Shown here piece after piece: positions 19,140 to 63,273 of a stretch of DNA of 64,000 bases. Source of the DNA: Rhodoblastus sp. Its GTDB lineage: Bacteria > Pseudomonadota > Alphaproteobacteria > Rhizobiales > Beijerinckiaceae. Each line of letters starts with the position of its first letter. Position 1 is the first letter of the stretch. Under the pieces are notes generated by a model. That model ran no database searches and was not told the origin of the DNA. It worked only from the letters and a program-made list of their open reading frames with translations. The stretch is from the NCBI GenBank assembly GCA_047971685.1, contig JBKDZW010000089.1, positions 4,488 to 68,487 on the forward strand, read 5' to 3'. A program made the position numbers and the translations under genes.

Positions 19140-19151
19140 ACGGGGGTCGCA

Positions 19152-47177: not shown

Positions 47178-47275
47178 ATGGTCGTTCCTGCCGGGGCATC
47201 CCGCCTATTGTCCGGGCAGCTATTGTCTTGGCGGCCCCGGATATGGGACAAGGCGCGCGCGGACCCGGGAAGCCA

Positions 47276-48172: not shown

Positions 48173-49324
48173 ATGAACCAGACGCCGAAAATCCTTTCGA
48201 TCTATCTCGGCAAGCGCGTGCTGCTGGCAACGCTCGTCGTGCAGGTCGCGCTGACCATTCCGGTCGTGCTGTCGGCTCTGTTCCATCAATTGCCGCCGGC
48301 GGCGCTGCGTGGCGGCCTACTCGGCCCCGCGCTCGTCGGCACCTTGCCGACCGTCACCTATATCGCGCTGCCGATTTCGGTCGGCGTCGCCGCAGCGCTT
48401 GAATTTTCGCGCATGTCGTCCGAAGGCATGGTGGCGGTGCTCTATTCGCTGCGCCTGTCGGCCTGGTCGATTGCGCGTCCCGCCATCGTCTGCGCGCTCG
48501 GGGCGACCGCCGTCGGCTATCTGTGCTCTTGCTGGCTGGCGCCGCGCTATGTCGGCTCCATGCACGACGTGCTGAACGTCATCCGCCACTCGCTCAACCA
48601 TCGCATGCTCGAGGCCGGCCAGTTCTATTCCTTCGACGAGGGCCGGCGCATCGTCTTTTTCGAGCGCTGGGAGACCCCCGACATAGCCGCCAAGGTGTTC
48701 ATCCGGCAGCGCTCGCCGGAAAAGAAGGTCGAGGAGACGATCACGGCCGATCGCGCGGAATTCCGCCGCAACGATTTCAATGTCGTGATGATCCTGACCC
48801 ACGGGCAGATCCAGAGCCGCCCCGACGACGGGCGGCGCGTACGCGTGTCCGATTTCGACGAATACGCGATTTCGCTGCCCATGCAGGGCGCCAAGGCGCT
48901 GCCCTCGCGCTCCTGGAAGGGCGTGTTCGAGCTGAGCATGCCGGATTTCTTCGCCTATATGAAATACGCCATGGTCGACCGCCGCAATTTTGCGGAATGG
49001 GCGTCGGAGGCCGTCAAAAGGCTGGTGATTCCGGCGCTGGCGCTCGCCCATACGCTGCTGGGCGTCGGGCTGGTGCTCAATGTCGCCAGCGCAACCGGGC
49101 GGCGCTCGGCCGCCGGCGGGGCAGCGGTCGCCGCGCTGCCGGTCGTCCATATCGCCATTCTGGTGGCCGCCGAAACGCTGATCCGCGCCAATCCGGCGCT
49201 GGCGATCCTCGTCATCGGCCTGGCGCTTGCCGAAATCGCTTGCGGCATATGGCTCATCCAGCGCCAGCAGGTCGGCGATGCGCGCCGGGCGCCGCAAATT
49301 GCGCCGGTGCTTGCGGGGGCGTGA
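48173..49324 (+). CDS. LptF/LptG (YjgP/YjgQ) family permease, orphan copy
   Basis: N-terminal pattern …ILSIYLGKRVLLATLVVQVAL…. Also …EGMVAVLYSLRLSAWSIARPAIVCAL…. A periplasmic-sized middle region is followed by three C-terminal TM segments. It begins 12 nt after the preceding gene. Confidence 0.72.
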   Translation: MNQTPKILSIYLGKRVLLATLVVQVALTIPVVLSALFHQLPPAALRGGLLGPALVGTLPTVTYIALPISVGVAAALEFSRMSSEGMVAVLYSLRLSAWSIARPAIVCALGATAVGYLCSCWLAPRYVGSMHDVLNVIRHSLNHRMLEAGQFYSFDEGRRIVFFERWETPDIAAKVFIRQRSPEKKVEETITADRAEFRRNDFNVVMILTHGQIQSRPDDGRRVRVSDFDEYAISLPMQGAKALPSRSWKGVFELSMPDFFAYMKYAMVDRRNFAEWASEAVKRLVIPALALAHTLLGVGLVLNVASATGRRSAAGGAAVAALPVVHIAILVAAETLIRANPALAILVIGLALAEIACGIWLIQRQQVGDARRAPQIAPVLAGA

Positions 49325-49399: not shown

Positions 49400-50200
49400 T
49401 CAGGCCGCCTGCCCGCCACCGACGACGCCAGCGGCCTCGTCTTCCTCGTCCTTGCGGACTGCGGCCTTGTAGGCGGGGATGATGTCGTCGGGATGGCCCA
49501 CTTCGCGCACCACGCCGGCGTCGATCCAGATCACGCGGTCGCAAAGCGTGCGCAGATAGTCGAGCCCGTGCGAAACGACCAGAATCGTGCCGCGCTTGGA
49601 AAATTCGGCGATGAAATTCTCGCATTTCTGCGCGAAAGCCTCGTCGCCGACCGAAAGCGCCTCGTCGACGATCAGAATGTCGGCGTCGACATGGGCGCAG
49701 ATGGCGAAGGCAAGCCGCGCGATCATGCCGCTCGAATAGAGCTTCATCGGCTGATCGAAAAACATGCCGATCTCGGCGAAATCGGCGATCTGATCGAGCT
49801 TGGCGACGATCTCGCGACGCGAGAGCCCCAGGACCGCGCCGCCGATGATCGCATTTTCGCGGCCGGACAATGTGGCGTCGAAGCCCGAGCCAAGCGCCAG
49901 GATAGGCGCAATGCGGCCGCGGATTTCGACCGTGCCGGTGGTCGGGCGCGTGATGCCGCACAGGATCTGGAGAAGCGTCGTCTTGCCCGCGCCGTTGCGG
50001 CCGATGATGCCGACGCATTCGCCCTTCCTGATATCGAAGGTGATATCGCGCAGCACCCAATGCTTTCTGTAATAGGTCTTGGCCCAGCCAAACAGCGCCT
50101 GCATCAACTGGTCGTTGCGGCGCAGGTAGAGCTGGAAGGCCTTGCCTGCGTTGCGGCAGGAAATCGCCAGTTCGGAAGACATCGGGCGATCAGAGGACAT
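49400..50200 (-). CDS. ABC transporter ATP-binding protein (Wzt/KpsT/TagH-like polysaccharide/lipid export type)
   Basis: Walker A GRNGAGKTT. Signature YSSGMIARL. Walker B ILIVDEAL. The N-terminus …LFGWAKTYYRKHWVLRDITFDI… is typical of ABC-2 exporters. An alternative start lies at 50182. Confidence 0.9.
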   Translation of the reverse strand: MSSDRPMSSELAISCRNAGKAFQLYLRRNDQLMQALFGWAKTYYRKHWVLRDITFDIRKGECVGIIGRNGAGKTTLLQILCGITRPTTGTVEIRGRIAPILALGSGFDATLSGRENAIIGGAVLGLSRREIVAKLDQIADFAEIGMFFDQPMKLYSSGMIARLAFAICAHVDADILIVDEALSVGDEAFAQKCENFIAEFSKRGTILVVSHGLDYLRTLCDRVIWIDAGVVREVGHPDDIIPAYKAAVRKDEEDEAAGVVGGGQAA

Positions 50201-51023
50201 CGACGATCACCGATTTGTATTCCTTGAAGAAACCGTAGCCGAACAGAAAGACAGCGTAAGAGGCCACGAAGCACGCCAGATACATCCACGGATCGGGAAA
50301 GCGCTCGTAGATCACAAGATCGCGCAGCATGGCGATGTAATCGCCTACCAGGTTGAGCTTGATCCAGGGTTGCAGATTGGCCGGCAATTGTTCGATCTGG
50401 AAGAAAACCGGCGTGGCGAACATCATCAGCGGCACGATCGAAACCATGAGATGGGCGACGTCGCGGGTAAAAGCGCCCAGCGCCATCAGGAACCAGACGG
50501 TGCCGAGCATCAAAAGCATGAACGGCAGGATGATGAGGGGTACGAAAATCACCTTCCACGAAATGAAGTGGACGGTGGCCAGCCGCACGGCGAGCAGCGT
50601 GGCGAAGCTGATCGCGCCATAGACGAGCGCGCGGATGGTGGAGGTCCAGGCGATCGTCTCGGACGGAAAGATCGACTTCTTGATGAAATGGACGTGCTCG
50701 TGCAGCAGCGTGGGCGAGCGCGCCGCCAGTTCCGCGAACACGTTGAACAGGATGAGGCCGCAAAAACTTGCCGCTGCATAATCGTAGATCGGCACGCCGG
50801 CTGCGACCGTCGGCGTCGCAATGGTGAAGATCGCAGTATAGACCAGCAGCATGGCGAGCGGCGCGAAGATCGCCCAGATCCAGCCCAGGAAGGAATCGCG
50901 GAACCGCGAGGTCAGTTCGCGCCGCACGACCGCGCGGATCAGCTCCCGGTGGTGCCAGGCCCGCTCGAACGGCTCAGTCAGGAATATCGGCAAGTCCTGG
51001 ATTTTCAACGCTGTGATTTCCAA
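50190..51023 (-). CDS. ABC-2-type transporter permease (Wzm/KpsM-like)
   Basis: TTG start. …HRELIRAVVRRELTSRFRDSFLGWIWAIFAPL… matches the ABC-2 N-terminal signature. Six predicted TM segments. Confidence 0.87.
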   Translation of the reverse strand: MEITALKIQDLPIFLTEPFERAWHHRELIRAVVRRELTSRFRDSFLGWIWAIFAPLAMLLVYTAIFTIATPTVAAGVPIYDYAAASFCGLILFNVFAELAARSPTLLHEHVHFIKKSIFPSETIAWTSTIRALVYGAISFATLLAVRLATVHFISWKVIFVPLIILPFMLLMLGTVWFLMALGAFTRDVAHLMVSIVPLMMFATPVFFQIEQLPANLQPWIKLNLVGDYIAMLRDLVIYERFPDPWMYLACFVASYAVFLFGYGFFKEYKSVIVDVL

Positions 51024-51080: not shown

Positions 51081-51143
51081 AGACGCCGTCCTTGCGGCAT
51101 GGAGCGCCGTCCTTGCGGCAAGAAGCGCCGTCCTTGCGGCATC
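51081..51143. repeat. 21-bp tandem repeat, 3 copies, in the divergent promoter region between the ABC-2 exporter and the ACP operon
   Basis: (a/g)(g/a)(a/g)CGCCGTCCTTGCGGCA-- units at 51081-51101, 51102-51122 and 51123-51143. Confidence 0.9.
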
Positions 51144-51504: not shown

Positions 51505-51774
51505 GTGGACTCTGTTGCGCAAGGCGATGAATTCTACGCCCAGATCATTGAAGTGATTTCGAAAGAGGGCATGGTCGAGGCCGACAAGGTCAAGCCCGAA
51601 GCCACAATCGAAAGTCTCGATCTCAAGTCTATCGACATCGTCATGATTCTGACGGCGATCGAGGAAAAATTCGACGTCTACATTCCCATGGACGGGGCCT
51701 TTCAGGAGGCCAAGACCGTTCAGGATCTGATCGACGCGCTGGCGACCCATATCAACAAAGAGAAGAAAAACTGA
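51505..51774 (+). CDS. Acyl carrier protein (dedicated, non-housekeeping type)
   Basis: PP-binding pattern …IESLDLKSIDIVMILTAIEEKFDVYIP…, with Ser in the LKS position of the usual D-S-L motif. GTG start chosen at 51505 because there is no in-frame ATG. The stop is directly followed by the KAS ATG (TGAATG). Confidence 0.72.
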   Translation: MDSVAQGDEFYAQIIEVISKEGMVEADKVKPEATIESLDLKSIDIVMILTAIEEKFDVYIPMDGAFQEAKTVQDLIDALATHINKEKKN

Positions 51775-52992
51775 ATGACGCAGGGCCGTCGGGTCGTCAT
51801 CACCGGCATGGGCGCCGTCTCCGGCGCCGGCGTCGGATGGAAGCCGCTGTGGAACGCCGCCCGCGAGGGCGCGAGCGTGGTCCGCGCGCTTGAATTTGCG
51901 CGCGATTATCCCGGCCGCATTCGCATCGGCGCGCAGGTTCCCGATTTCGATGCGGCCAAGCTGATCGAGCGCTCCACGCTGATGTATTGCGATCCCTTCA
52001 CGCAATACGCGATTGTGGCCGCCGATCAGGCGGTGGCCGAAGCCGGTTTCGACAACAAAAATGTCGGCGGCGCCGATTGCGCGGTCATTCTGGGGTCGGG
52101 CATTGGCGGCATCCGCACCGTCGACGACGGTCTCTTCGCGCTCTACGCAAAGGGCGTGAAGCCGGAACCGCTGAGCATTCCCAAGCTGATCGCCAGCGCC
52201 GGCCCCTCGATGCTGTCCATCCGCTACGACGCGCACGGGCCGGTGTTTGCGGTGGCCAGCGCGTGTTCCTCCGCAAATCAGGCGATCGGCATGGGCATGC
52301 ACATGGTGCGCTCCGGCATGGCCGAGCGCGCCATTGTCGGCGGCGCCGAGGCGAGCCTTTCGGTCGGCACCCAGATGACCTGGGAAATGCTGCGTGTGCT
52401 GACGCCGGACAAATGCCGCCCCTTCTCCAAGGGCCGCAACGGCATGAGCATCGGCGACGGCGCGGCCATGTTCGTTCTGGAAACCGAGGAGGCGGCGATG
52501 GCGCGCGGCGCGCCGATCCTGTGCCGCCTCGTGGGCTACGGCACTTCGGCGGACGCGCGCGACCCGATCCGCCCCGACGCGGACGGCGCCTCGCTCGCCA
52601 TGCGCCGCGCCATCGCGGACGCCGATATTCCCGCCGACACGATCCAGTACGTCAATGCGCACGGCACGGCGACCGCGCTCAACGATCCCACGGAAGCCGA
52701 GGCCATGGGCCGCATTTTCGGCGACAGGCTGGCCGAGGTCGCGGTCTCCTCGACCAAGCCGGTGCACGGCCATGCGCTGGGAGCTGCCGGCGCGCTGGAG
52801 CTGGTCTGCACCATCATGGCGATGCGCGAAAACATTGCGCCGCCGACGATCAATTTCCTCGAACCCGACCCCAAATGCCCTGTGGATTGCGTGCCCAACC
52901 AGGCGCGCGCCATGACGATCCGCACGGCCATGACCAATTCCTTCGCCTTTGGCGGCGTGAACGCCTCGCTCGTCCTCCAGGCGGCGGACTGA
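51775..52992 (+). CDS. Beta-ketoacyl-ACP synthase (KAS I/II, FabF-like)
   Basis: …RRVVITGMGAVSG…. Active-site Cys context AVASACSSANQAIG. His motifs NAHGTAT and …KPVHGHALGAAG…. 405 aa. Confidence 0.92.
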   Translation: MTQGRRVVITGMGAVSGAGVGWKPLWNAAREGASVVRALEFARDYPGRIRIGAQVPDFDAAKLIERSTLMYCDPFTQYAIVAADQAVAEAGFDNKNVGGADCAVILGSGIGGIRTVDDGLFALYAKGVKPEPLSIPKLIASAGPSMLSIRYDAHGPVFAVASACSSANQAIGMGMHMVRSGMAERAIVGGAEASLSVGTQMTWEMLRVLTPDKCRPFSKGRNGMSIGDGAAMFVLETEEAAMARGAPILCRLVGYGTSADARDPIRPDADGASLAMRRAIADADIPADTIQYVNAHGTATALNDPTEAEAMGRIFGDRLAEVAVSSTKPVHGHALGAAGALELVCTIMAMRENIAPPTINFLEPDPKCPVDCVPNQARAMTIRTAMTNSFAFGGVNASLVLQAAD

Positions 52993-52999
52993 GGGCGTC

Positions 53000-53422
53000 A
53001 TGGGCGTGGAGAGGCCGCTCGGGCCGCAGGAAACGGCCCTCGGTCCGTTCGAGGCTCTGGCCGATCCCGCCGCCATCGCCGCATTCAAGGCGGCGCTTGA
53101 CGCCCCGGGCGCGGTTCTTGACGCATCCGGCGCCGAAATTCCGGCGACTTTCCCGATTGTCTGGCTCTCTCTCCCCGCGCTCAAGACGGCGCTGCGCGAA
53201 GCCGCCGGCGCCGGCCACCTGCCGGTCCACGAATCCCAGTCCTTCGATTATGCGCAGCCGCTCGTTTCCGGCGCCGCCTATCGTATGAGCGTTGCGGCGC
53301 AACGCGAGAACGCCCCCCCGCGCCTCGTGGTCGAGGCTAAGGTCGCAGACGCCTCCGGCGCGAAAATCGTGACCATGCGCGCTGCGCTGCGGCTCGTTCC
53401 GCTGGCGGAGGGCGGCGCATGA
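53000..53422 (+). CDS. Hotdog-fold protein, MaoC_dehydrat_N / HadA-like (non-catalytic dehydratase subunit candidate)
   Basis: 140 aa, with pattern …PATFPIVW…ESQSFDYAQPLVSGAAY…RLVVEAKVADASG…. 4-nt overlap with the following MaoC gene. The assignment is by fold-like pattern and context. Confidence 0.6.
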   Translation: MGVERPLGPQETALGPFEALADPAAIAAFKAALDAPGAVLDASGAEIPATFPIVWLSLPALKTALREAAGAGHLPVHESQSFDYAQPLVSGAAYRMSVAAQRENAPPRLVVEAKVADASGAKIVTMRAALRLVPLAEGGA

Positions 53423-53823
53423 AACTTCCGGTTTCGCGCGGCGACACGATGCCGGAAACCATTGTCGGCCCGTTCGACGCGGCTGCGGTCGCAGCCTATG
53501 CGGCCGCCTCCGGCGACGACAATCCCTTGCATCTCGACGCTGCGCTTGCCGCCCGCGCAGGATTTGCCGCTCCGCCAGTCCATGGCATGCGGCTGATGGC
53601 CGAAATCGCGCCTGCGCTTGCCGCCTGGCGGCCGGACATGGCGCTCAAGCGCCTGTCGGCCACTTTCGTCGAGCCGTTGCTGGTCGGCGAGGAGGCGCGT
53701 CTTACGGCCCGCGTTCTTCGCGCGGAAGGCGACGTTCTGATGCGCATCGCCATCCAGGGGCCGCGTCGCGGTCCAAGCGTTCTGGCGGAAGCCGTTCTGG
53801 TTGCAAGGGCGGGCGCGTCATGA
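53419..53823 (+). CDS. MaoC-like (R)-specific hydratase/dehydratase (HadB-like catalytic subunit candidate)
   Basis: Hydratase-2 type motif …ASGDDNPLHLDAALAARAGFAAPPVHGM…. 134 aa. ATGA overlaps on both sides. Confidence 0.8.
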   Translation: MKLPVSRGDTMPETIVGPFDAAAVAAYAAASGDDNPLHLDAALAARAGFAAPPVHGMRLMAEIAPALAAWRPDMALKRLSATFVEPLLVGEEARLTARVLRAEGDVLMRIAIQGPRRGPSVLAEAVLVARAGAS

Positions 53824-54617
53824 GTCCTGCGCCGCGCTCCATCCTGATTACCGGCGCCTCCAGCGGCATTGGCCGGGCGCTTGCCCGCGAATATGCCGCG
53901 CCCGGCGTACGGCTGACGCTGGTTGGCCGCGACGGCGCGCGGCTTTCGGCCGCCGCCTCGGAATGCCGCGTCAAGGGCGCGGAAGTCGAAATCGGCCAGG
54001 TGGATGTGCGCGACCGGCAGGGCATGCACGATTTCTTGCGCGCTGCGGATGCAAAAGCGCCGCTCGATCTGGTGGTCGCCAACGCCGGCGTCAACACCGG
54101 CCTGCCGGCAGGCGCGCTCGCCGAAGATCCGGAAGCTGTGCGCGGCATTTTCGCGATCAACCTCCTCGGCGTTTTCAACACGGTGGAACCCATGATCGAG
54201 CCGATGGCCGCGCGTGGAAAAGGCGTGATCGCGATGACCGGCTCGATCGCCGCCGTGCGCGGCCTGCCCTATTCGCCGTCCTATTGCGCGACCAAGGCGG
54301 CGGTCCATCTTTACGCGGAATCCTTGCGCGGAACGCTCGCCCGCAAGGGCGTGACGGTCAGCCTGATCGTGCCGGGCTTCGTCCATACCGCGCTCAACGA
54401 GAAGCTGACCTCGCCGAAGCCGCTCGCCATGACCGACGAGCGCGCCGCGCGCATCGTCCGGCGCGGGCTCGACCGGCGCAAGGCCAACATCGTCTTCCCG
54501 CGCCTGCTGTATTGGGGGGCGCGGCTGCTGACGGTCCTGCCGGCGCGGCTCGTCGATTTCTTCATGGTGCGCCAGTATGTCGACGTGCCGGTCACGCGCG
54601 AGAGGATGACGCCTTGA
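53820..54617 (+). CDS. Classical SDR oxidoreductase (ketoacyl-ACP reductase or 3-ketosphinganine/oxo-ceramide reductase candidate)
   Basis: TGASSGIGRALA Rossmann motif, NAG motif, and catalytic S…YCATK. Confidence 0.88.
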   Translation: MSPAPRSILITGASSGIGRALAREYAAPGVRLTLVGRDGARLSAAASECRVKGAEVEIGQVDVRDRQGMHDFLRAADAKAPLDLVVANAGVNTGLPAGALAEDPEAVRGIFAINLLGVFNTVEPMIEPMAARGKGVIAMTGSIAAVRGLPYSPSYCATKAAVHLYAESLRGTLARKGVTVSLIVPGFVHTALNEKLTSPKPLAMTDERAARIVRRGLDRRKANIVFPRLLYWGARLLTVLPARLVDFFMVRQYVDVPVTRERMTP

Positions 54618-55786
54618 ACGTCGCTCTCGACATCCTGCGTTGGGCCACGCTCGTTTTCTGCGCGATCTCGCTCGCCGGCCTCGTGCTGACCGTAGCGCTC
54701 GGACTGATCTCGCCGCTGATCCATGCGCGCCGCGCGCGCAGGTCCGATCTGCCGCCGATCAGCTTTATCCTGCCTATCAAGGACTGGGCGACAAGCTTCG
54801 GTCCTTCGCAATCCTCGGTCTTTGCGCTCGACTATCCCGAATATGACGTGACCGCGACGGCGGCGGAGGCCGAATCGCAGGCCGTAACGGCGATGCGCGA
54901 CATTATTGCCGCCCATCCCGACCGCCCGGCCAAACTGGTGCAATCGACGGCCAGCTTTGCCGTCAGCCCCAAGGTCAACAATATTTACAGCGCGATCGAG
55001 GAGGCCAGATACGATCTCATCGCCACCAAGGATTGCAACATCGTGTTGCCGCCGCGCACCGCGCGCATGGCGGTCGCCGCCATGACCGAGAACGTGGGGC
55101 TTGTGACCGCCATAACCGAGGCGCGCGGCGCGACCTCGCTGGCGGCGCGGATCGAGGCCTCGATCATGAACCAGTCGCATGCGCGCTATCTTCACGCAGC
55201 GGCCGCGCTGGGGCTCGGTTTCGGGCTCGGCAAGCTGATGATCTTCAAGCGCTCGGATCTGCACCGGGCCGGCGGTTTTGAAGCCATCGCCCATACCGTG
55301 GGCGAGGATTCGGCGACCGCCCATGCGCTTGCAGGCATCGGCCTGCGCACGGTCATCATCGGCGCGCCGATCTATCAGGTGCTGGGCGCGCGCAAATTCG
55401 GCGATATGCACAACCGTCAGATGCGCTGGGCCGTCATAAGGCGCCAGAACGAACTGGCCGGTTTTCTGGCCGAACCTTTCGGCCTGTCGGTCTTTGTGGC
55501 GCTGGCGGCGGCTTTTGCGGCGCCGCTTCTTGGCTGGAGCGCGCCGGGCGCCTTTCTGGCGACGCTCGTCTTCTGGTTTGCCTGCGAAACCGCGCTTGCC
55601 TTGGCGCGGGGCTGGGATGTATCGGTGAGCGCGCCCTTCGTCATGGTCGCCCGCGATGCGATGATGGCTTCGGTCTGGCTGCGCGCCTGGTTCACCAGGC
55701 GGGTCGTCTGGGCGGCCGAAGTTTACGAGGCGCAGCAGGAGCGTGGCTCGATGCCTGCCCCCGCCCAGAAAAGGAATGATGCGTGA
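54614..55786 (+). CDS. GT21-family glycosyltransferase (ceramide glucosyltransferase / UGCG-like)
   Basis: A TTG start overlaps the SDR stop (TTGA). Regions align by eye to human UGCG: LPPISFILPIK…FALDYPEYDV, SPKVNNIYSAIEEARYDLIATKDCNIVLPP, MTENVGLVTAI, GEDSATAHAL, and Q-x-RW (NRQMRWAVIRR). The 661-aa ORF in the track includes an out-of-frame leader. Confidence 0.8.
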   Translation: MNVALDILRWATLVFCAISLAGLVLTVALGLISPLIHARRARRSDLPPISFILPIKDWATSFGPSQSSVFALDYPEYDVTATAAEAESQAVTAMRDIIAAHPDRPAKLVQSTASFAVSPKVNNIYSAIEEARYDLIATKDCNIVLPPRTARMAVAAMTENVGLVTAITEARGATSLAARIEASIMNQSHARYLHAAAALGLGFGLGKLMIFKRSDLHRAGGFEAIAHTVGEDSATAHALAGIGLRTVIIGAPIYQVLGARKFGDMHNRQMRWAVIRRQNELAGFLAEPFGLSVFVALAAAFAAPLLGWSAPGAFLATLVFWFACETALALARGWDVSVSAPFVMVARDAMMASVWLRAWFTRRVVWAAEVYEAQQERGSMPAPAQKRNDA

Positions 55787-57060
55787 CGGCGCAAGGATTG
55801 CTCGTCGGATTGATCGACATTGCGCTCACGCTATGCGTTCTCGGCATGGCGGCGATTGGCGCGAGCCTGCTCGTTCTGGTGGTTCGCTTTCTCTACGACC
55901 AGGCGCGCGGCGCAGGCGACGGTTCACGCGACGTCGCGCCGCTGGCGGAAGCCGACCTGCCGCATGTCGTCCTGCAAATTCCCGTTTTCAACGAGCCGCG
56001 CGTGGTGATCGGCGCCCTGCGCGCCGCCGCCGCGCTCGATTGGCCGCGCGAAAAACTGCACCTTCAATTGCTCGACGATTCCACCGACGAGACCACCGAG
56101 CGCGCCGCCGAACTGATCGCGGAATTGCGCGCCGAGGGCCACGACGTGCGCCATGTGCGCCGCGAGGACCGCACGGGCTTCAAGGCCGGCGCGTGCGCCG
56201 CCGGTCTGGCGCTCGACGATTCGCCGTTCGTGGCGATGCTCGATGTCGATTTCCGCCCGCCGGCCGACTGGCTGCGCAAGGCCATTCCCGTCATCGTCGG
56301 CGATCCCAAGGCCGGCTTCGTGCAGGCGCGCTGCGAATTCGCCAATTACCGCAAAAACTGGCTGACGCGCGTACAGGGCCTGATCCTCGACGGCCATTTC
56401 ATGATCGAGCAGCGCACCCGCGCCAATCTCGGCTGGCTGTTCCAGTTCAACGGCACGGGCGGCATATGGCGGCGCGCAGCCATCGATTCGGTCGGCGGCT
56501 GGCAGGATTATTCGCTGACCGAAGACCTCGACCTCACCATCCGCACCGCGCTTGCCGGCTGGCACGGCCGGTTCATTTCCGAGCCCGCCAGTCCCGGCCA
56601 GATGCCCGAGGGCATGCGCGACTGGCGCCGCCAGCAGCGCCGCTGGTCCAACGGCTTCATTCAGGTCGCCCAGCGGACGCTCGGACCGATCTGGACCGCG
56701 CCATGGAGCCTGGCCGAACGCCTGTCCTCGATCATGCTCGTGCTGCATCAGGTGTTCTTTCCGTTGTGCGCGGGCGCAATCATCCTCATCATTCTCGGCA
56801 TTCTGGCGCGAGGAATCTCGATTGCAGCCTATCTGCCGCTGTTCGGCCTGATCTTCCTGATGGTCTGCGCGGTCGTGATCGGCATGACCCTGCCGCCCTC
56901 TCTCGCGCTCAAGCGTGGGTCGTTCTGGCGCTATCTCGCCACCATGGCCATGCTGCCGCCGCTGTTCATCTATCTGGCCGTCGCCAATGCGCCGAAAATC
57001 ATCCAGACCGCGCGCGGGCGGCAGGAGCATTTCAAGCGCACGCCCAAGAAAGAGCATTAA
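55783..57060 (+). CDS. Family 2 glycosyltransferase, processive type (CslA / MGlcDG-synthase-like), membrane-embedded
   Basis: A GTG start overlaps the GT21 stop (GTGA). Motifs: …VVLQIPVFNE…, LLDDSTD, MLDVDF, TEDLDL and QQRRW (QxxRW). N-terminal and multiple C-terminal TM segments. Confidence 0.87.
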   Translation: MTAQGLLVGLIDIALTLCVLGMAAIGASLLVLVVRFLYDQARGAGDGSRDVAPLAEADLPHVVLQIPVFNEPRVVIGALRAAAALDWPREKLHLQLLDDSTDETTERAAELIAELRAEGHDVRHVRREDRTGFKAGACAAGLALDDSPFVAMLDVDFRPPADWLRKAIPVIVGDPKAGFVQARCEFANYRKNWLTRVQGLILDGHFMIEQRTRANLGWLFQFNGTGGIWRRAAIDSVGGWQDYSLTEDLDLTIRTALAGWHGRFISEPASPGQMPEGMRDWRRQQRRWSNGFIQVAQRTLGPIWTAPWSLAERLSSIMLVLHQVFFPLCAGAIILIILGILARGISIAAYLPLFGLIFLMVCAVVIGMTLPPSLALKRGSFWRYLATMAMLPPLFIYLAVANAPKIIQTARGRQEHFKRTPKKEH

Positions 57061-57455: not shown

Positions 57456-58907
57456 ATGGACGACAAACTTGCATTCGCCTCGGCGGCCACGCTCGCAAAA
57501 CTGGTGCGCGAAAAAAAGGTCGGGGCGGTCGAACTTCTGGAATTCTTTCTTGCGCGCGTCGAACGCCACAATCCCACTCTCAACGCCATCATCGTCCAGC
57601 GCGCGGACGCCGCCAGAAAAGAGGCTGCGGCCTGCGACGCCATGACCGCGAAAGGCCAGTCGATGGGGGCGCTGCACGGCGTGCCCATGACGGTCAAGGA
57701 ATCCTTCGATGTCGCGGGCACGCCGTCCACCTGGGGATTGACGGCGTTCCGCGACAATATCGCGGCCAGGGACGCGCTTTCCGTCGAGCGGTTGAAGGGC
57801 GCTGGCGCGGTCGTTTTCGGCAAGACCAATGTGCCGGCCTGGCTTGCCGACTGGCAATCGTTCAACCCGATCTACGGCACGACCAACAATCCCTGGAATG
57901 TCGGGCGCACGCCGGGCGGTTCTTCAGGCGGCAGCGCGGCGGCGCTGGCGGCGGGACTCACGGGGCTGGAGATAGGCAGCGACATCGGCGCCTCCATCCG
58001 CGATCCCGCCCATTATTGCGGGGTTTACGGCCACAAGCCGACCTTCGACATCTGCCCGCGCGACGGCCATCTCCTGCCCGGCGCCTATGCCCACGGCGAT
58101 ATTTCCGTGATCGGCCCGCTGGCGCGCTCGGCCTACGATCTGGAGACCGCGCTCGACATTATCGCAGGGCCCAATGCGCTCGAGGCCACGGGGCTGCGCC
58201 TGGAATTGCCGCGCTCGAAAAAGACGAAACTGTCGGAGTTTCGCGTCGCCGTCATGCCTTCGGCCGACACCGCGCCGGTCGATGGCGCCGTGCGTGAAAA
58301 AATCGAGGAGCTTGCCGGTTTTCTGGAAGGCCAGGGCGCCCATGTCGATCGCGCCGCGCGCCCCGTCGATCCAGCCGCCGCGCACGAGACCTACATCATG
58401 CTCCTGCGCTCGGCGACCAGCGGCGCGCTCGATGACGCGGTTTACGAAAAATTGCTGGCTGCGCGAAAAGAGGTTGCAGGGCGCAACGATTATTTCGCCT
58501 GGCATGCGCGCGCAAACACGATGGGCCATCGCGAATGGCTGCGCTGGAACAATGCCCGCGCGAAAATGCGGCTCGACTGGCAGGCGTTTTTTACCCGCTT
58601 CGATCTCCTGCTCTGCCCGACCGCCACGACAACCGCGTTTCCGCACATGCAGACCGGCGAGCGCTGGGAACGCATGATTTCGGTCGACGGCAAGGACCAG
58701 CCGACGACGACGCAGCTTTTCTGGGCGGGCTATTCCGGCATGGTCGATCTGCCATCGACCATCGCGCCGCTCGGGCTGGCGAAAGACGGCCTGCCGGTCG
58801 GCGTGCAGATCGTGGCGCCGGCCTATCGGGATCACAGCGCCATCCGCTTCGCGCAATTGCTGGAAGACCGGTATCGCGCGTTCGAGCCGCCGCCGGGGTT
58901 TGCATAA
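57456..58907 (+). CDS. Amidase-signature (AS) family amidase
   Basis: AS motif GGSSGGSAAALAAG, catalytic Lys context VPMTVKESF, and …GSDIGASIRDPA…. RBS GGGAGGA. Confidence 0.9.
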   Translation: MDDKLAFASAATLAKLVREKKVGAVELLEFFLARVERHNPTLNAIIVQRADAARKEAAACDAMTAKGQSMGALHGVPMTVKESFDVAGTPSTWGLTAFRDNIAARDALSVERLKGAGAVVFGKTNVPAWLADWQSFNPIYGTTNNPWNVGRTPGGSSGGSAAALAAGLTGLEIGSDIGASIRDPAHYCGVYGHKPTFDICPRDGHLLPGAYAHGDISVIGPLARSAYDLETALDIIAGPNALEATGLRLELPRSKKTKLSEFRVAVMPSADTAPVDGAVREKIEELAGFLEGQGAHVDRAARPVDPAAAHETYIMLLRSATSGALDDAVYEKLLAARKEVAGRNDYFAWHARANTMGHREWLRWNNARAKMRLDWQAFFTRFDLLLCPTATTTAFPHMQTGERWERMISVDGKDQPTTTQLFWAGYSGMVDLPSTIAPLGLAKDGLPVGVQIVAPAYRDHSAIRFAQLLEDRYRAFEPPPGFA

Positions 58908-58939: not shown

Positions 58940-59626
58940 TCAGAGCGGCTTGTCGCCGGGCTTGTCGTCCTTGGCATAGCCGGTGCCGAACACATCGTCC
59001 CAATAAGGGCAGCTCACGCCATAGCCGCGGTCGGGATCGCGGAAATGATGCAGGAGGTGCGCACGGCGCAGGATCTGCTCGACCCTGGTGTGCGGCGGGC
59101 GGTGATGAATGTGGTAGTGGATCTCGTCGTAGAGCACGTAGCCGACGAGGAAGCCGGCCGTGATCGAATAGGACAGAGGCTCCGGAAACAGCAGGGTGAT
59201 CACGACATAAGCGAGCGCCATCAGCGGCACGCTCATCAGCAGGGGCATGACGAGGCGCAGGGGATCGCTCGGATGCACGTGATGCACGCCGTGCAGCAGG
59301 AAGTGGATGCGCTCGCCGATCCTGCCGGGAAATTCCGTGTGAAAGACCCAGCGATGGAAGACATATTCGCAGAGCGTCCAGGCGATATAGCCGAAGATCA
59401 GGCAGGCGATGGTGATGAACGCCGGTTGCCCCCTGGCGCCGAGCCAGCCGAGCCAGGCGGCGAAGGGAAGATAGAACAGCGGCGCCCACCAGGGTACGCG
59501 CGAAAGCAGGTCCAGCACACGATTGTCGAAAATGCGCGGCGAGGCCGCCAGAAGCTCGGCCTTGCTCATGCCCTGCGTCGACATATGCGCGTATGGGTCG
59601 CGCGCGGTTTGCGTCGTGTCGCTCAT
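58940..59626 (-). CDS. Fatty acid 2-hydroxylase (FA2H/Scs7-like, fatty-acid hydroxylase superfamily) lacking a cytochrome b5 domain
   Basis: His boxes and flanks align by eye with human FA2H: WTLCEYVFHRWVFH, HFLLHGVHHVHPSDPLRLVMP, GYVLYDEIHYHIHH and LRRAHLLHHF…GYGVS…WDDVFGT. Confidence 0.85.
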   Translation of the reverse strand: MSDTTQTARDPYAHMSTQGMSKAELLAASPRIFDNRVLDLLSRVPWWAPLFYLPFAAWLGWLGARGQPAFITIACLIFGYIAWTLCEYVFHRWVFHTEFPGRIGERIHFLLHGVHHVHPSDPLRLVMPLLMSVPLMALAYVVITLLFPEPLSYSITAGFLVGYVLYDEIHYHIHHRPPHTRVEQILRRAHLLHHFRDPDRGYGVSCPYWDDVFGTGYAKDDKPGDKPL

Positions 59627-59636
59627 GCCAGTCTCC

Positions 59637-60647
59637 TCACGCCGCCGCAGTCGGCGCGCTTGTCGCCGGCGCCGGCGTACTTGCCGCCGGCGCCGCGCCG
59701 AGATTCTCGGTGCGCGACATCAGCGAATATCGCGGGTTGAAGATGAAATCGAAGAACAGTTTCACCCAGGATTTGTGGGCGTGCAGGTTATTGTAGAATT
59801 CCGGCGCCGTGGCCTTCAACCTGGGCAGCAGGGCCCAGGGGATTTCCTGAAAATCGTGATGTTCGTTGTGATAGCCGATGTTGAGCGCGAAGAAGTTCAG
59901 GGGGCCGTAGTAATCGAACGTGCCCTGCCCCGGCCAGGCCGCGTAATGCTCCTGAATCCAGCGCGCGCCCAGCGGATGCAGGCCGACCGAGAACCAGAAG
60001 GAAGCAAACAGGTAAAACAGCGCATTGCCGCCGAGGAAATACCAGACCGCGATGTCGAAGACCGCGATGACGGCGAAATTGACGTAGGTCCACAGGCCCC
60101 AGATCGGCACCGTGCCCTTGAGGCGGTAGATGCGGGTGAGCTGCATCACGGGGAAGAAGAACAGCCACAGGGCTTTGCGCCACCAGACATTGCCGACGAG
60201 TTTTGCCTCCCAGCCGGAGGGCACGTCGGCGTCGTAATCGTAGCTGGACAGATGCGAATGGTGCTTCACATGGTAGCAGCGAAAGCCCATGGCGGTCGGA
60301 AAGGCGTTGGGCAGATCGGCCAGAATCGCATTCCATTTGTTGAGCGTGGGGCTCTGGAACACGGCGTTGTGGATGGAATCGTGAATGATCACGAACATGG
60401 CGTGATTGGCGAATGCGCCGATTCCATAGGCGAGCAGCAGGGTCGCCCACCAATAGGACATGCCGAGATAGCCCATCCAGGCGGCGATCGCGACTTGCAG
60501 GACGAATACGCCGGCGGTGATCCAGAAGGTTCTGATGTCGCGCACCATGAGCTGGGCCACTTCCGGATGGGCGGCCAGGATCGCCTTGCGGCGATCGACA
60601 TGGCTTCGGTCGACGCCGAGAGCGGTAACGGGAACGCTCATGTTCAT
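59637..60647 (-). CDS. Sphingolipid Delta4-desaturase (DEGS1/Des1-like; Lipid_DES N-terminal region plus FA desaturase domain)
   Basis: Collinear by eye with human DEGS1: HVDRRKAILAAHPEVAQLM, NHAMFVIIHDSIHNAVF, FRCYHVKHHSHL, GLHPLGARWIQEHY, YYGPLNFFALNIGYHNEHHDFQEIP and SWVKLFFDFIFNPRYSLMSR. It carries an extra Ala/Pro/Thr-rich C-terminal tail. Confidence 0.9.
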   Translation of the reverse strand: MNMSVPVTALGVDRSHVDRRKAILAAHPEVAQLMVRDIRTFWITAGVFVLQVAIAAWMGYLGMSYWWATLLLAYGIGAFANHAMFVIIHDSIHNAVFQSPTLNKWNAILADLPNAFPTAMGFRCYHVKHHSHLSSYDYDADVPSGWEAKLVGNVWWRKALWLFFFPVMQLTRIYRLKGTVPIWGLWTYVNFAVIAVFDIAVWYFLGGNALFYLFASFWFSVGLHPLGARWIQEHYAAWPGQGTFDYYGPLNFFALNIGYHNEHHDFQEIPWALLPRLKATAPEFYNNLHAHKSWVKLFFDFIFNPRYSLMSRTENLGAAPAASTPAPATSAPTAAA

Positions 60648-60663: not shown

Positions 60664-61863
60664 TCACCCGGCCTGCGCCGCGCCCGTCAGGGCTGCTTGC
60701 GGCGCGCCGTCGAGGCGCTTCTCGTAGATACGATGGATTTTGTCGATTTTAGCGCCACTCATCTCAATGGGTCTGCGCATGCCGGCGTTATCTTCCAGAA
60801 CCCAGCCGAATTCCACTTGATCTAACGCAACTTTGCGGCTCCGCAGGCGTAATTCTTCTATCATGGTCATGATGACGATGCCGCCGCGTGCGCTCTTATG
60901 TAGCGCCTTCGTCATGCCGAACAGGGCGAGGCGGCCGGATTTATAGTCGCGTTTGCGAATGCGGGCGACCACCTTCGGCAGGCCGAACGGAAAAAGCCTG
61001 CCGTCGAGATCGGCCACGATCTCGTGCAGATTGGGCACGACAATTCCGAAGGCGACGGGCTCGCCGTCGATTTCGGTCACAAAGCCCCAATCCTCGGTCA
61101 TCAGGAATTTCAGGCTGTCGGCCATCGACTTGAATTCTTCGCGCGTGATCGGGACAAAGCCCCAGTTTCCGGCCCAGGCGTCGTTGAAAAGGCGCGTCAT
61201 CAGATCGACCTCGCTGTCGAGGTCGTTCATGCGCAGGGCCCGGAATTTCAGGCGTTCGCGCCATTCCGGGCGGTTGAGCAGCAAAGGCTCGGCGTTGCGG
61301 TCCGTCGCGGAGACATCGTAGCGGTAGGAAATGAGGTCGCGCGCCTTGGCGTAGCCCAGCGCCTCGACATGGGCGCTCAGATAGGGCGGATGCCAGGGAA
61401 TGAAGACCATGGGCGTGGCCTCGAAACCCTGGACCAGAAGGCCGCATTCGGCGTTGACCGAGGGCGAGAACGGCCCGTGGACAACCTCTGCGCCCTCGCG
61501 CTTCAGCCAGGCTTCCGCAGCCGCCAGCAGCGCCGCCACGACCTCGCGGTCGTCGACCGCATCGAGCGAGCCGAACTGATAGCGGGAAGCTAGATTGGGG
61601 CGGACCTCGTTATAGACCTGCGCCTCGATGCGGCCAACGGTCGCGCCGTCTCGTTTGGCCAGAAAGGCCTGCGAGCGCACGAGCCTGTAATGCGGATTGA
61701 GCTTGTGGGCGTACATGGCCCAGCGCTCGGCGTCGAGCGAGGGCGAAAAGCCCGGCCAGCCGCGATAGAGCCGGCGCGGCGCGCGGCAAAACTCCATGAA
61801 GGCGCGAAGGCCCGAGACGGGCGATATCTCGACGGCGTTCCGATGAACTGATGCTGCGGACAT
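60664..61863 (-). CDS. Large GNAT-like N-acyltransferase (bacterial ceramide synthase bCerS-like candidate)
   Basis: ~400 aa, with …AWLKREGAEVVHGPFSPSVNAECGLLVQGFE…PPYLSAHVEALGYAKARDL… and a C-terminal GNAT-like half. The start at ATG 61863 is inferred (alternatives at 61875 and 61899). The functional call rests on family resemblance recalled from the literature plus adjacency to the Spt-like gene. Confidence 0.68.
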   Translation of the reverse strand: MSAASVHRNAVEISPVSGLRAFMEFCRAPRRLYRGWPGFSPSLDAERWAMYAHKLNPHYRLVRSQAFLAKRDGATVGRIEAQVYNEVRPNLASRYQFGSLDAVDDREVVAALLAAAEAWLKREGAEVVHGPFSPSVNAECGLLVQGFEATPMVFIPWHPPYLSAHVEALGYAKARDLISYRYDVSATDRNAEPLLLNRPEWRERLKFRALRMNDLDSEVDLMTRLFNDAWAGNWGFVPITREEFKSMADSLKFLMTEDWGFVTEIDGEPVAFGIVVPNLHEIVADLDGRLFPFGLPKVVARIRKRDYKSGRLALFGMTKALHKSARGGIVIMTMIEELRLRSRKVALDQVEFGWVLEDNAGMRRPIEMSGAKIDKIHRIYEKRLDGAPQAALTGAAQAG

Positions 61864-61935
61864 GGCGCCGCCCATAGCACGGACGCAGGCCGGAACCAAC
61901 GCCGGCCTGCGCGAATTGGAGCGGTTCCAGACGGG

Positions 61936-63273
61936 TTAGAAAGCCGCCGCCGGCTGATCGCCCGGCAGGACGAGACCGCGCGGCGGCTCGACGACCGGCC
62001 GGTCGACGATCAATTGCACGACCTGGCGGATATCGTCCTCGGTGTGGCTGGCCGAGATGAAGAAGCGCAGGCGCGGCTTGTCCTTGGGCACGCCTACCTG
62101 CACGACGGGCGGCACATAGACGCCGTGCGCCAGCAGGTGCTGGGAGACGGCCATGGTCTCCCACACCGAATTGAACAGGATCGGCACGACGGCGCGCCCG
62201 ATCGCGGGGCCGGTGTCGAGGCCGGCGGCCTGCGCCGTGTTGCGCAGGAATTCGGCGTTATGCGCGAGTTTGGCGATGCGCCAGGATTCCGACTGCATCA
62301 GGTCCAGCGCCTTGGAGGCGGCAGCCGTGATGACCGGCGACAGGCCGACCGAATAGACGAAGCCCGGCAGGGTGAATTTCATCCAGTCGATGAGCAATTG
62401 CTTGCCGGCGACGAAACCGCCGCAGGAGGCGAAACTCTTCGACAAGGTGCCGACGATGAGATCGACGCGGGCGGGGTCGACGCCGCAATATTCGCACAGG
62501 CCCGCGCCGCGCTTGCCGAGAACGCCGATGGAATGGGCCTCGTCGACCAGAAGCCACACGCCGTGCTTTTCCTTGATGTCGCAGATGCGCGCCAGATCGA
62601 CCGTGTCGCCGTCCATCGAATAGAGGCTTTCGACGACGATCAGGCAATTGCGGTATTTCTCGCGGTGCTCGGTGAGCAATTGGTCGAGATGGTCGAAATC
62701 GTTGTGGCGGAATACGATCTGGGCCGCATCCGCATTGCGCGCGCCGGTCGCCACGCTGTTGTGCGACAATTCGTCGAGGAAGATCGCGTCGCGCTTGGCC
62801 ATCAGATGGGTGATGACGGTCAGATTGGTCAGATAGCCCGAGACCAGCGACAGCGTCGCTTCGGTTCCCAGAAACTTCGCGAGATTTTCCTCGAATTTCT
62901 GGTGGGTCGAACGCTCGCCGCCGACAAGGCGGGACGCGAGCGCGCCCACGCCCAGCGTGTCGATGGCCCGGTGGGCGGCCGCCTTCACTTCCGGATGCTC
63001 GGCAAGCCCCAGATAATCGTAATTGGCGAAAGAGACGTAATGCCCGCCGTTCCGGCCCTCGATCTCCGCCTTGAGCGTGTCGGTCGGCGCGAAGAACGGA
63101 TTGCCGTGCTCGTCGAGGATGGCTTTGCCGGCGAGCCTGTAGCGCCGGAACGCATAATCGGAGAGGCTTTGGTGTTTTTTCGCCACGCAGAAAGGTTCCG
63201 GTTGCGGGACGGTCCGCCCCTGATTGCGTCGCGCAGCGCGCTGGGCCGCCTGCCGACGCTGCCCCTTTACCAT
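61936..63273 (-). CDS. PLP-dependent alpha-oxoamine synthase, serine palmitoyltransferase (Spt)-like
   Basis: AOS family motifs …FANYDYLGL…, …SHNS…, …VDEAHSIG… and PLP-lysine GTLSKSF. BioF/KBL/ALAS alternatives are considered. The operon context with DEGS-, FA2H- and bCerS-like genes favours Spt. Confidence 0.8.
   Translation of the reverse strand: MVKGQRRQAAQRAARRNQGRTVPQPEPFCVAKKHQSLSDYAFRRYRLAGKAILDEHGNPFFAPTDTLKAEIEGRNGGHYVSFANYDYLGLAEHPEVKAAAHRAIDTLGVGALASRLVGGERSTHQKFEENLAKFLGTEATLSLVSGYLTNLTVITHLMAKRDAIFLDELSHNSVATGARNADAAQIVFRHNDFDHLDQLLTEHREKYRNCLIVVESLYSMDGDTVDLARICDIKEKHGVWLLVDEAHSIGVLGKRGAGLCEYCGVDPARVDLIVGTLSKSFASCGGFVAGKQLLIDWMKFTLPGFVYSVGLSPVITAAASKALDLMQSESWRIAKLAHNAEFLRNTAQAAGLDTGPAIGRAVVPILFNSVWETMAVSQHLLAHGVYVPPVVQVGVPKDKPRLRFFISASHTEDDIRQVVQLIVDRPVVEPPRGLVLPGDQPAAAF

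Follow-up and report, generated by a model that had tools for sequence, protein, structure and literature searches.

Gene content of the locus

We analysed a 64,000-nucleotide stretch of DNA, hereafter the window, from a metagenome-assembled genome of Rhodoblastus sp. (assembly GCA_047971685.1, contig JBKDZW010000089.1, positions 4,488 to 68,487). The genes under study encode two adjacent glycosyltransferases, referred to here as GT21 and GT2. They are the last two genes of a seven-gene operon, ACP-KS-HD1-HD2-SDR-GT21-GT2, in which they follow genes for an acyl carrier protein (ACP), a beta-ketoacyl-ACP synthase (KS), two hotdog-fold proteins (HD1 and HD2) and a short-chain dehydrogenase/reductase (SDR) (Table 1). 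A sphingolipid-type set lies on the other strand, ~2-6 kb downstream of GT2, and encodes a Scs7-like fatty-acid hydroxylase (FAH), a DES1-like desaturase (DES), a tandem GNAT protein and an alpha-oxoamine synthase (AOS) resembling serine palmitoyltransferase (Spt). Together with further sugar-transferase and transport genes upstream, these genes form a glycolipid island of 18.6 kb (~44.7-63.3 kb), whose limits were set by the unrelated genes on either side: the other annotated genes of the window (~15.9-44 kb and 63.4-63.9 kb) have unrelated housekeeping or metabolic functions. An initial annotation of the same sequence had mentioned lipid-synthesis genes upstream of the glycosyltransferases. 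Such genes are present, but it had missed that they make up a dedicated ACP/KS/dehydratase/SDR module, and it had missed the downstream sphingolipid-type set.

Table 1. Features of the glycolipid island, with positions in the window.
Feature	Position	Strand	Product length	Remarks
Two tandem paralogous GT4-type (GT-B) genes	44674-47177 (~44674-45900 and 45906-47177)	-		Glyco_trans_1_4 in both
Nucleotide-diphospho-sugar (NDP-sugar)-transferase-like protein	47228-48160	+	310 aa	Npun_R2821 family
LptF/LptG-family permease paralogue, candidate glycosphingolipid transporter	48173-49324	+	383 aa	Pfam LptF_LptG 1.6e-33
ABC-2 exporter	49400-51023 (Wzt/TagH-like ATPase 49400-50200; Wzm-like permease 50190-51023)	-		divergent from the operon
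ACP, dedicated	51505-51774	+	89 aa	likely start GTG 51505; Pfam PP-binding 1.1e-7; NCBIfam ACP models all under cutoff
KS, FabF-like beta-ketoacyl-ACP synthase II	51775-52992	+	405 aa	Pfam ketoacyl-synt N and C domains
HD1, probably a non-catalytic HadA-like hotdog partner	53000-53422	+	140 aa	no Pfam or NCBIfam match
HD2, MaoC/HadB-like hotdog dehydratase subunit	53419-53823	+	134 aa	Pfam MaoC_dehydratas 9.6e-14; weak NCBIfam HadB and fused HadA/HadB matches
SDR, classical	53820-54617	+	265 aa	Pfam adh_short 3.7e-43; ATG start overlaps HD2 stop
GT21, UGCG-like glycosyltransferase	54614-55786	+	390 aa	N-terminal transmembrane (TM) helix, GT-A domain, C-terminal helices; TTG start
GT2, membrane glycosyltransferase	55783-57060	+	425 aa	DD98, DVD154, TED246, QQRRW284; GTG start
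Tandem repeat, 2.8 copies of 25-bp unit GAACGCCTGAAAGGCGCGTTTTAAA	57260-57328	+		short GC hairpin then TTTTAAA per unit; score 124, 93% matches
Amidase-signature enzyme	57456-58907		483 aa	between GT2 and the sphingolipid-type genes; NCBIfam PRK06170, 612 bits, above cutoff
FAH, Scs7/FA2H-like fatty-acid hydroxylase	58940-59626	-	228 aa	Pfam FA_hydroxylase 1.7e-17; His boxes
DES, DES1-like sphingolipid delta-4 desaturase homologue	59637-60647	-	336 aa	Pfam FA_desaturase 5.3e-23, N-terminal Lipid_DES 1.8e-7
Tandem-GNAT N-acyltransferase, candidate ceramide synthase	60664-61899	-	399-411 aa	annotated 'hypothetical'; fold of AlphaFold2 model
AOS, alpha-oxoamine synthase, candidate serine palmitoyltransferase	61936-63273	-	445 aa	Pfam Aminotran_1_2 1.9e-53

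GT21 is a relative of glucosylceramide synthase

The GT21 protein scored far above the curated threshold of Pfam Glyco_transf_21 (PF13506; E 2.6e-42, 144.7 bits against a cutoff of 21.7) and covered profile positions 1-173 of 174, which assigns it to CAZy family GT21. The NCBI annotation contains a product identical over all 390 residues (P0001), named merely 'glycosyltransferase'. In a sequence search of the PDB, the top solved relatives were the human 'Ceramide glucosyltransferase' (UGCG) entries 26qs and 26qf (E 6e-30, residues 42-339). Identity to UGCG, judged by eye from the alignment, is ~29%. Residues D140, E231-D232, R268-Q-M-R-W272 and H189 of the window protein pair with D144, D236, R272-W276 and H193 of UGCG. 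The position of UGCG D92, the first catalytic aspartate (D1), is taken by S88 with E85 and E87 before it, so that three of the four catalytic elements are strictly conserved.

Residues 3-38 and 281-331 are hydrophobic by hydropathy analysis. In an AlphaFold2 model computed from 15 homologues (pLDDT 91.2), helices span 2-38 and 262-358, and both analyses support a membrane-anchored GT-A architecture. Foldseek, run on a PDB library older than the UGCG entries, matched the model to membrane-integrated GT2 enzymes by fold, among them PcManGT, BcsA and hyaluronan synthase. The UGCG-like GT21 identity proposed in the initial annotation is thus confirmed by the Pfam score, the PDB match and the aligned catalytic residues.

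The best NCBIfam profile for GT21 was HpnI (TIGR03472), with 144 bits, and annotated HpnI proteins are among its second-tier homologues. Bacteria of the Beijerinckiaceae and Methylocystaceae type make hopanoids. An HpnI-type GT21 would glycosylate bacteriohopanetetrol, and the neighbouring FA_hydroxylase protein would be a sterol- or hopanoid-type oxidase. The score is, however, under half of the curated equivalog cutoff of 310, and no hpn gene was detected among Pfam-annotated neighbours, most of the related loci described below having been screened only against the window proteins. Moreover, the match of the hydroxylase is specifically to Scs7, a ceramide 2-hydroxylase, and its gene shares an operon with AOS, GNAT and DES. 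We therefore rejected the HpnI assignment on score and annotated neighbourhood, and regard a hopanoid acceptor as highly improbable.

GT2 carries a beta-glycosyltransferase signature

The GT2 protein matched Pfam Glyco_trans_2_3 (E 5.4e-27) and has hydrophobic segments at both ends (1-39, 314-377 and 385-403). The D,D,D,QxxRW signature attributed to it beforehand was recovered in full, and the combination of DD, DxD, TED and QxxRW motifs with flanking TM segments is that of processive membrane GT2 beta-glycan synthases. GT2 has the catalytic signature of inverting beta-glycosyltransferases. The QxxRW and TED motifs are also present in non-polymerising lipid glycosyltransferases such as UGCG, so the label 'processive' given to GT2 in the initial annotation is unsupported.

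These motifs, together with BcsA as top solved relative (E 2e-17), weak matches to CelA and PgaC and the nearby ABC-2 polysaccharide-type exporter, would also suit a synthase of a free, secreted beta-glycan (cellulose-, mannan- or curdlan-like) unrelated to the GT21 product. Several observations make us doubt this and consider it quite improbable. GT2 is only 425 aa long, with about five predicted TM segments and without PilZ or accessory synthase subunits. It scored far under the cutoff of every curated synthase model in NCBIfam (CelA, PgaC, NodC; for example CelA 95 against 699). Finally, GT2 adjoins GT21 in 36 of 80 related loci, overlapping it or lying within a few nucleotides, including Rhizomicrobium loci that lack the fatty-acid module.

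Overlapping non-ATG starts reflect ordinary operon packing

The overlapping non-ATG starts reported previously for GT21 and GT2 were found as described. The GT21 start TTG (54614-54616) overlaps the SDR stop TGA (54615-54617) as TTGA, and the GT2 start GTG (55783-55785) overlaps the GT21 stop TGA (55784-55786) as GTGA. Purine-rich, Shine-Dalgarno-like stretches lie 7 nt before both starts (GAGAGGA, 54600-54606, for GT21; AAAGGAA, 55770-55776, for GT2). No alternative in-frame start was present within 40 nt of the GT21 N-terminus, and the N-termini of the 15 aligned GT21 homologues coincide.

Comparison of the junctions in ~30 orthologous loci showed an NTGA overlap at the same position of the SDR-GT21 junction in most. 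The overlap codon is mostly GTG, with ATG in L009, L023 and L029 and TTG in the window and L018; in six loci (L003, L012-L014, L021 and L022) an ATG 2 nt past the SDR stop (TGATG) is present or also possible. The GT21-GT2 junction is GTGA throughout the Rhodoblastus-related clade. In Methylocystis and Methylosinus the GT2 start is TTG (GTG in L019), 6-17 nt past the stop. Since their positions are conserved among orthologous loci, we regard the TTG and GTG starts as real. In an apparent SDR-GT21 fusion, a metagenomic protein of 535 aa (P0040), the SDR part lacks its N-terminal end and reading continues into GT21 across the junction where stop and start normally overlap; an indel or a gene-calling error is the probable cause, and the protein was therefore not taken as evidence.

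The initial annotation had read strict stoichiometric coupling into these overlaps, which goes too far: the codon varies between ATG, GTG and TTG in orthologues, and the NTGA overlap is the commonest operon junction in GC-rich bacteria. All junctions of the operon are equally tight, the ACP stop abutting the KS ATG, the KS-HD1 gap being 7 nt and the next four junctions being 4-nt overlaps, and other overlapping gene pairs exist in the window (for example 22404/22407). We conclude that the 4-base overlaps are ordinary packing in a GC-rich genome and no sign of a special stoichiometric constraint. They would permit translational coupling, with nothing specific about stoichiometry.

Sphingolipid-type genes downstream of the glycosyltransferases

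The only solved relative of FAH was the yeast 'Ceramide very long chain fatty acid hydroxylase SCS7' (4zr1, E 5.5e-30). DES has the His boxes HDSIH89, HVKHH126 and HNEHH260, and its FA_desaturase and Lipid_DES domain pair recurs in the operon desaturases of Methylocystis and Methylosinus; a sequence search of the PDB with DES gave zero matches. The tandem-GNAT protein had no Pfam, NCBIfam or PDB sequence match. Its AlphaFold2 model (pLDDT 76.9) resembles tandem GNATs, MshD and N-myristoyltransferase, and its gene invariably lies between AOS and DES in the loci compared.

The top PDB match of AOS was the Sphingobacterium serine palmitoyltransferase (SPT) 3a2b (209.6 bits), with KBL at 206.7 bits. 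All NCBIfam scores were under cutoff: 350 against 426 for bioF, 294 against 500 for SPT-BetaP, 286 against 640 for a third SPT model and 206 against 670 for SPT-AlphaP. AOS is thus not assignable to SPT from sequence alone. A CerR-type reductase (NAD-dependent epimerase family) was absent from the Pfam-annotated genes (~15.9-26 and 28-63.9 kb; the first ~13.9 kb of the window were unscanned), and the classical SDR (53820-54617) is the sole reductase candidate in the island. Taken together, the Scs7-DES1-GNAT-AOS set looks like an undescribed, eukaryote-like bacterial ceramide pathway. A literature search found no description of an AOS-GNAT-DES-Scs7 operon or of GT21 genes in bacterial sphingolipid loci.

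A fatty-acid module precedes the glycosyltransferases

KS scored 389 bits against the NCBIfam fabF model, under its equivalog cutoff of 494. HD1 is distantly akin to the HD2 family over its whole length (hhalign probability 70%, E 4e-5, 116 columns), and its position is conserved in loci that carry the module. SDR gave 198 bits with NCBIfam PRK07024 (cutoff 266) and generic SDR, FabG and 17beta-HSD matches in the PDB, making it a candidate for either the ketoreductase of the module or a 3-keto-sphingoid/oxo-ceramide reductase.

To place the operon in a wider context we used the 80 best related genome loci, most of them screened only against the window proteins. The full order ACP-KS-HD1-HD2-SDR-GT21-GT2 is conserved in 32 of these, from Rhodoblastus, Methylocystis, Methylosinus and uncultured Beijerinckiaceae. 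Relative to the window (L001-L035), GT21 diverges faster than its operon neighbours, with 77-81% identity within Rhodoblastus and 43-48% to Methylocystis and Methylosinus. The corresponding values are 86-90% and 59-63% for GT2, and 84-91% and 55-63% for KS. HD1 is the sole operon protein less conserved than GT21.

A sigma-70 promoter scan of the operon returned no promoter-like site, and terminator-like sites occurred at chance level. The tandem repeat of GAACGCCTGAAAGGCGCGTTTTAAA begins 200 nt past the GT2 stop and is probably the terminator region of the operon, as a multiple intrinsic terminator or an element resembling repetitive extragenic palindromes (REP-like). Three exact copies of GCCGTCCTTGCGGCA with 21-bp spacing lie at 51084-51142, within the divergent promoter region that separates ACP from the ABC-2 permease (chance expectation 0.55 matches in the window). 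This 21-bp-spaced repeat is absent from all 85 related loci compared; it may thus serve as a regulator site peculiar to this strain or have arisen by repeat expansion.

GT21 is linked to ceramide-type genes in several arrangements

GT21 is linked to the module, FAH or AOS in 63 of the 80 loci; the exceptions are an 11-locus subclade, three loci from Rhizomicrobium and loci on short contigs. FAH lies within 10 kb of GT21 in 42 loci, mostly convergent and ~1.1 kb downstream. In Rhodoblastus-related genomes the module, the glycosyltransferase pair and FAH-DES-GNAT-AOS are all kept adjacent. AOS-GNAT-DES-FAH form a separate operon of four genes, at another place in the genome, in Methylocystis parvus, Methylosinus sp. 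Sm6 and Methylocystis sp. KS32. That the AOS operon and the module occur together was shown directly for the genomes in which both are adjacent and for KS32, where the AOS operon and the seven-gene module (L023) lie on one contig, ~190 kb apart.

Loci of the Methylocella, Methylocapsa and Methylovirgula type are without the fatty-acid module, and in most of them GT21 is convergent with a Scs7-like gene ~1.1 kb away; the flanks of GT21 in Methylocapsa polymorpha are unrelated (nickel transporter and ergothioneine genes). L034 has a compact five-gene block, AOS-GNAT-DES-GT21 followed by convergent FAH, between a citrate transporter gene and rhodanese/YkuD genes. In Rhizomicrobium, which lacks the module, GT21 and GT2 are found with an NDP-sugar-transferase-like gene, further GT2 genes and a DES-like desaturase gene. 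In a neighbour-joining tree the three context types fall into three clades. We conclude that this GT21 clade is genomically tied to Spt-like AOS, tandem GNAT, DES1-like and Scs7-like genes in several independent arrangements.

Which acceptor does GT21 use?

The linkage of GT21 to Scs7-like, DES1-like, GNAT and AOS genes, in the window and in other genera, favours ceramide over diacylglycerol (DAG) as acceptor. From this genomic context we consider ceramide, or a closely related N-acyl long-chain base, the most likely acceptor, and hold this with somewhat more confidence than doubt. Glycosylated ceramides are thus probable products of this Rhodoblastus and of related methanotrophs, along a route undescribed in bacteria.

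The initial annotation had pointed out, in agreement with the literature, that the bacterial GT21 enzymes characterised so far use DAG. These are the Pgt enzymes of Agrobacterium tumefaciens and Mesorhizobium loti, which are processive, prefer DAG and are associated with a Pho box. A Pgt-like GT21 would produce mono- or oligohexosyl-DAG as phosphorus-free lipids; GT2 would then be a second synthase of DAG glycolipids, or of the monoglucosyldiacylglycerol type, and the sphingolipid-type neighbours would be coincidental. Besides the known preference of Pgt, two observations are in keeping with this: Methylosinus trichosporium OB3b makes monogalactosyldiacylglycerol (MGDG), to which its lipidomics paper assigns no synthase, and the glycosyltransferase pair lies apart from the AOS operon in Methylocystaceae.

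Several results argue in the other direction. In a tblastn search of PLSDB plasmids and chromids, the GT21 homologues of Sinorhizobium, Shinella, Gemmobacter and Pannonibacter, presumably of the Pgt type, were 27-31% identical to the window protein, about as distant as human UGCG; none of these rhizobial and Rhodobacterales homologues is among the 80 best genome loci. The phosphate-starvation context is lacking, with no PlcP-like gene in the island and no Pho-box-like site near the seven-gene operon (a weak test), whereas the Gemmobacter homologue follows a PlcP-like gene. Lastly, GT21 recurs beside Scs7-like, DES1-like, GNAT and AOS genes in differing arrangements and in several genera, which chance would hardly produce. 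A DAG acceptor thus seems unlikely to us.

The Gemmobacter fulvus locus (L085; plasmid p2, NZ_CP076363.1, 274230-277407) was observed in its own right. Its GT21, annotated 'ceramide glucosyltransferase', directly follows a 'UDP-2,3-diacylglucosamine diphosphatase' gene of the LpxH family, and is itself followed by genes for a VTT-domain protein and another glycosyltransferase. The LpxH-like family includes PlcP, a DAG-releasing phospholipase, and the position of GT21 after a PlcP-like gene therefore indicates a supply of DAG. The locus looks like a DAG-glycolipid remodelling operon, and its 'ceramide' annotation is probably wrong.

Alternatively, the acceptor could be the product of the module itself, that is, a hydroxy- or enoyl-fatty acyl, fatty-alcohol or diol-type lipid, with the seven-gene operon self-contained and independent of the AOS operon. 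The seven genes do form a tightly packed unit in 32 loci, which in Methylosinus and Methylocystis stands alone among unrelated flanks. The module has, however, no thioesterase, reductase to an alcohol or acyltransferase that would release an acceptor. Moreover, the nearest GT21 relatives outside the module clade adjoin ceramide-type genes without having the module, and module-bearing genomes also have the AOS-GNAT-DES-FAH operon wherever this could be checked. AOS itself is without an AcpR/acyl-ACP-synthetase pair, so that the module ACP would be a natural partner for AOS. We accordingly give the module product, like DAG, only a small chance of being the acceptor.

A number of points weigh against ceramide as acceptor. 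In Methylocystaceae it is the fatty-acid module, rather than the AOS operon, that the glycosyltransferase pair accompanies, so that a module product could be the direct acceptor. AOS scores under every curated SPT cutoff and does just as well against BioF and KBL models; the island has no CerR homologue, and SDR as the reductase is a guess. The 11-locus GT21 subclade shows no lipid context, a superoxide dismutase gene adjoining GT21 in the three loci examined. Pgt, which when expressed heterologously also accepts ceramide, shows that GT21 enzymes can take both lipids. We found no report of ceramides in Beijerinckiaceae or Methylocystaceae, and a literature search on ceramides in Methylocystis, Methylosinus, Methylocella, Rhodoblastus and Rhizomicrobium returned nothing relevant; the lipidomics paper on M. 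trichosporium OB3b is without mention of ceramide.

Transport and sugar-transferase genes of the island

The island contains five glycosyltransferase-like genes in total (GT21, GT2, the two GT4 genes and the NDP-sugar-transferase-like gene), which hints at an oligosaccharide head group. The GT4 pair is conserved upstream of the module in the Rhodoblastus-related clade. Its gene limits were taken from GC3 frame analysis, the 841-aa open reading frame listed over the pair being a run-on. The NDP-sugar-transferase-like gene is also found directly upstream of GT21 in Rhizomicrobium loci. The LptF-like permease scored 116 bits against NCBIfam LptF (cutoff 230) and co-occurs with the module in the Rhodoblastus-related clade, and the ABC-2 exporter is conserved with the module in L001-L011, L018, L035 and L068.

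The amidase gene (57456-58907) is conserved at its position in Rhodoblastus genomes only, and may encode a ceramidase-like tailoring enzyme or be an unrelated insertion. Outside the island, a pyruvate-formate-lyase-like glycyl-radical enzyme and its radical-SAM activase are encoded beside an AtuA-family protein and a thioesterase (16863-19979); these genes are unrelated to the glycolipid genes.

A proposed route to glycosylated ceramide

The gene set runs parallel to the eukaryotic route to glucosylceramide (GlcCer), with AOS corresponding to SPT, the GNAT protein to the N-acyltransferase, and a delta-4 desaturase, a Scs7/FA2H-type hydroxylase and a UGCG-type GT21 as further counterparts. In the route that we propose, AOS would condense serine with an acyl thioester, and the tandem GNAT would N-acylate the resulting long-chain base. 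The 3-keto group would be reduced by a reductase, possibly the operon SDR, which comes into question since the annotated part of the window has no CerR-type gene. The DES1-like enzyme would add the delta-4 double bond and the Scs7-like enzyme a 2-hydroxyl on the N-acyl chain. On the cytoplasmic side of the inner membrane, GT21 would then move a hexose from a UDP-sugar onto the C1 hydroxyl group of the ceramide, after which GT2 would attach one or more further beta-linked sugars. Still more sugars may be added to the head group in Rhodoblastus by the GT4 pair and the NDP-sugar-transferase-like protein, and the LptF-like permease and ABC-2 exporter would carry the product outward.

The most likely role of the ACP, KS, HadAB-like and SDR genes would be to make or pass on an acyl-ACP reserved for this pathway, as a substitute for the AcpR/acyl-ACP-synthetase pair of the Caulobacter type. 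According to one report (PMC9386255), Spt in Caulobacter-type loci is always accompanied by a special ACP and an acyl-ACP synthetase. Here no acyl-ACP synthetase accompanies AOS, and the only dedicated ACP is that of the seven-gene operon; for these two reasons we infer that the module prepares the acyl-ACP of the pathway.

In its complete form the proposal is tentative; we hold it with more reserve than the ceramide acceptor itself and consider it rather less likely than not. It states that Beijerinckiaceae and Methylocystaceae (type II methanotrophs and Rhodoblastus among them) and Rhizomicrobium natively make a glycosphingolipid of eukaryotic style, a 2-hydroxyacyl, delta-4-unsaturated hexosylceramide, by means of a UGCG-like GT21, DES1-like and Scs7-like enzymes, a non-canonical Spt and a tandem-GNAT ceramide synthase. 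In some lineages the ACP/KS/dehydratase/SDR module would replace the AcpR/acyl-ACP-synthetase pair. GT2, with three more glycosyltransferases in Rhodoblastus, would extend the head group, and LptF-like and ABC-2 proteins would export the product to the outer membrane.

The enzyme families, and bacterial glycosphingolipids as a type of system, are already known. What appears to be undescribed is their combination here, in which the first glycosyltransferase is UGCG-like, the tailoring enzymes resemble those of eukaryotes and a KS-based acyl-ACP module stands where an acyl-ACP synthetase would be expected.

Significance

In the literature consulted, glycosphingolipids are described from few bacterial lineages (Sphingomonas, Caulobacter and Bacteroides). 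If ceramide is what this GT21 clade glycosylates, the range of sphingolipid biology would grow to take in methanotrophs and phototrophs of environmental importance. GT21 would be the first native bacterial GlcCer synthase of its family, and thus the first bacterial homologue to share, natively, the substrate of UGCG, a drug target. The KS-based module would be an alternative route for feeding Spt. Loci of the L034 type would provide a compact, five-gene and directly testable set for GlcCer-like lipids in bacteria, and, with most of the eukaryotic GlcCer pathway matched in bacteria, the system would bear on the origin of that pathway. A rule of thumb would also follow for the acceptor of a bacterial GT21: DAG where PlcP is a neighbour, ceramide where Scs7-like, DES1-like or AOS genes are.

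Comparison with known systems

GT21 most resembles UGCG among solved structures, sharing its N-terminal TM helix, GT-A domain, C-terminal helices and equivalents of D2, D3, (Q/R)xxRW and His193, and its gene neighbours mirror the eukaryotic GlcCer pathway. It differs from UGCG in sequence (only ~29% identity by the estimate above), in the replacement of D1 by S88 and in being bacterial and operonic; its donor and acceptor are predicted. The ceramide synthase candidate is a soluble tandem GNAT and not a Lag1/CerS protein as in eukaryotes. In Bacteroides, the alpha-galactosylceramide synthase, the one ceramide glycosyltransferase with a stated family in the literature consulted, is a GT4 enzyme.

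Pgt is likewise an alphaproteobacterial GT21 that glycosylates membrane lipids. Unlike Pgt, which prefers DAG, is associated with a Pho box and acts alone and processively, the window GT21 lies in neither a PlcP nor a Pho-box setting and has a separate GT2 as its partner. HpnI, the top NCBIfam profile, is of the same length and topology class as GT21 but stands apart by profile score and by the absence of hopanoid genes among the annotated neighbours of GT21. GT2 shares the DD, DxD, TED and QxxRW motifs and flanking TM segments of BcsA, hyaluronan synthase, NodC and CslA-type enzymes, onto whose fold the GT21 model superposes; in contrast to BcsA-type synthases, it is much shorter, has neither regulatory domains nor partner subunits, and always occurs together with a lipid glycosyltransferase.

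The system of Caulobacter crescentus (Spt, AcpR/AasR, bCerS, CerR, Sgt1/Sgt2 and LptF2/G2/C2) follows a similar logic, with an AOS, an N-acyltransferase (a candidate one in the window) and Lpt-like transport paralogues, LptF2/G2/C2 being part of the Caulobacter sphingolipid loci. Sgt1 and Sgt2 are encoded side by side and glycosylate ceramide sequentially, and GT21 and GT2 are likewise adjacent. Yet the window AOS reaches only 206 bits against the cutoff of 670 of the alphaproteobacterial SPT model, and a KS/dehydratase/SDR module is found where Caulobacter has an acyl-ACP synthetase and CerR, homologues of which were not seen here. None of the sphingolipid genes that the Caulobacter papers name corresponds to the DES1-like or the Scs7-like tailoring enzyme. 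Finally, the first glycosyltransferase of the window belongs to GT21, whereas those papers give no CAZy family for Sgt1 and Sgt2.

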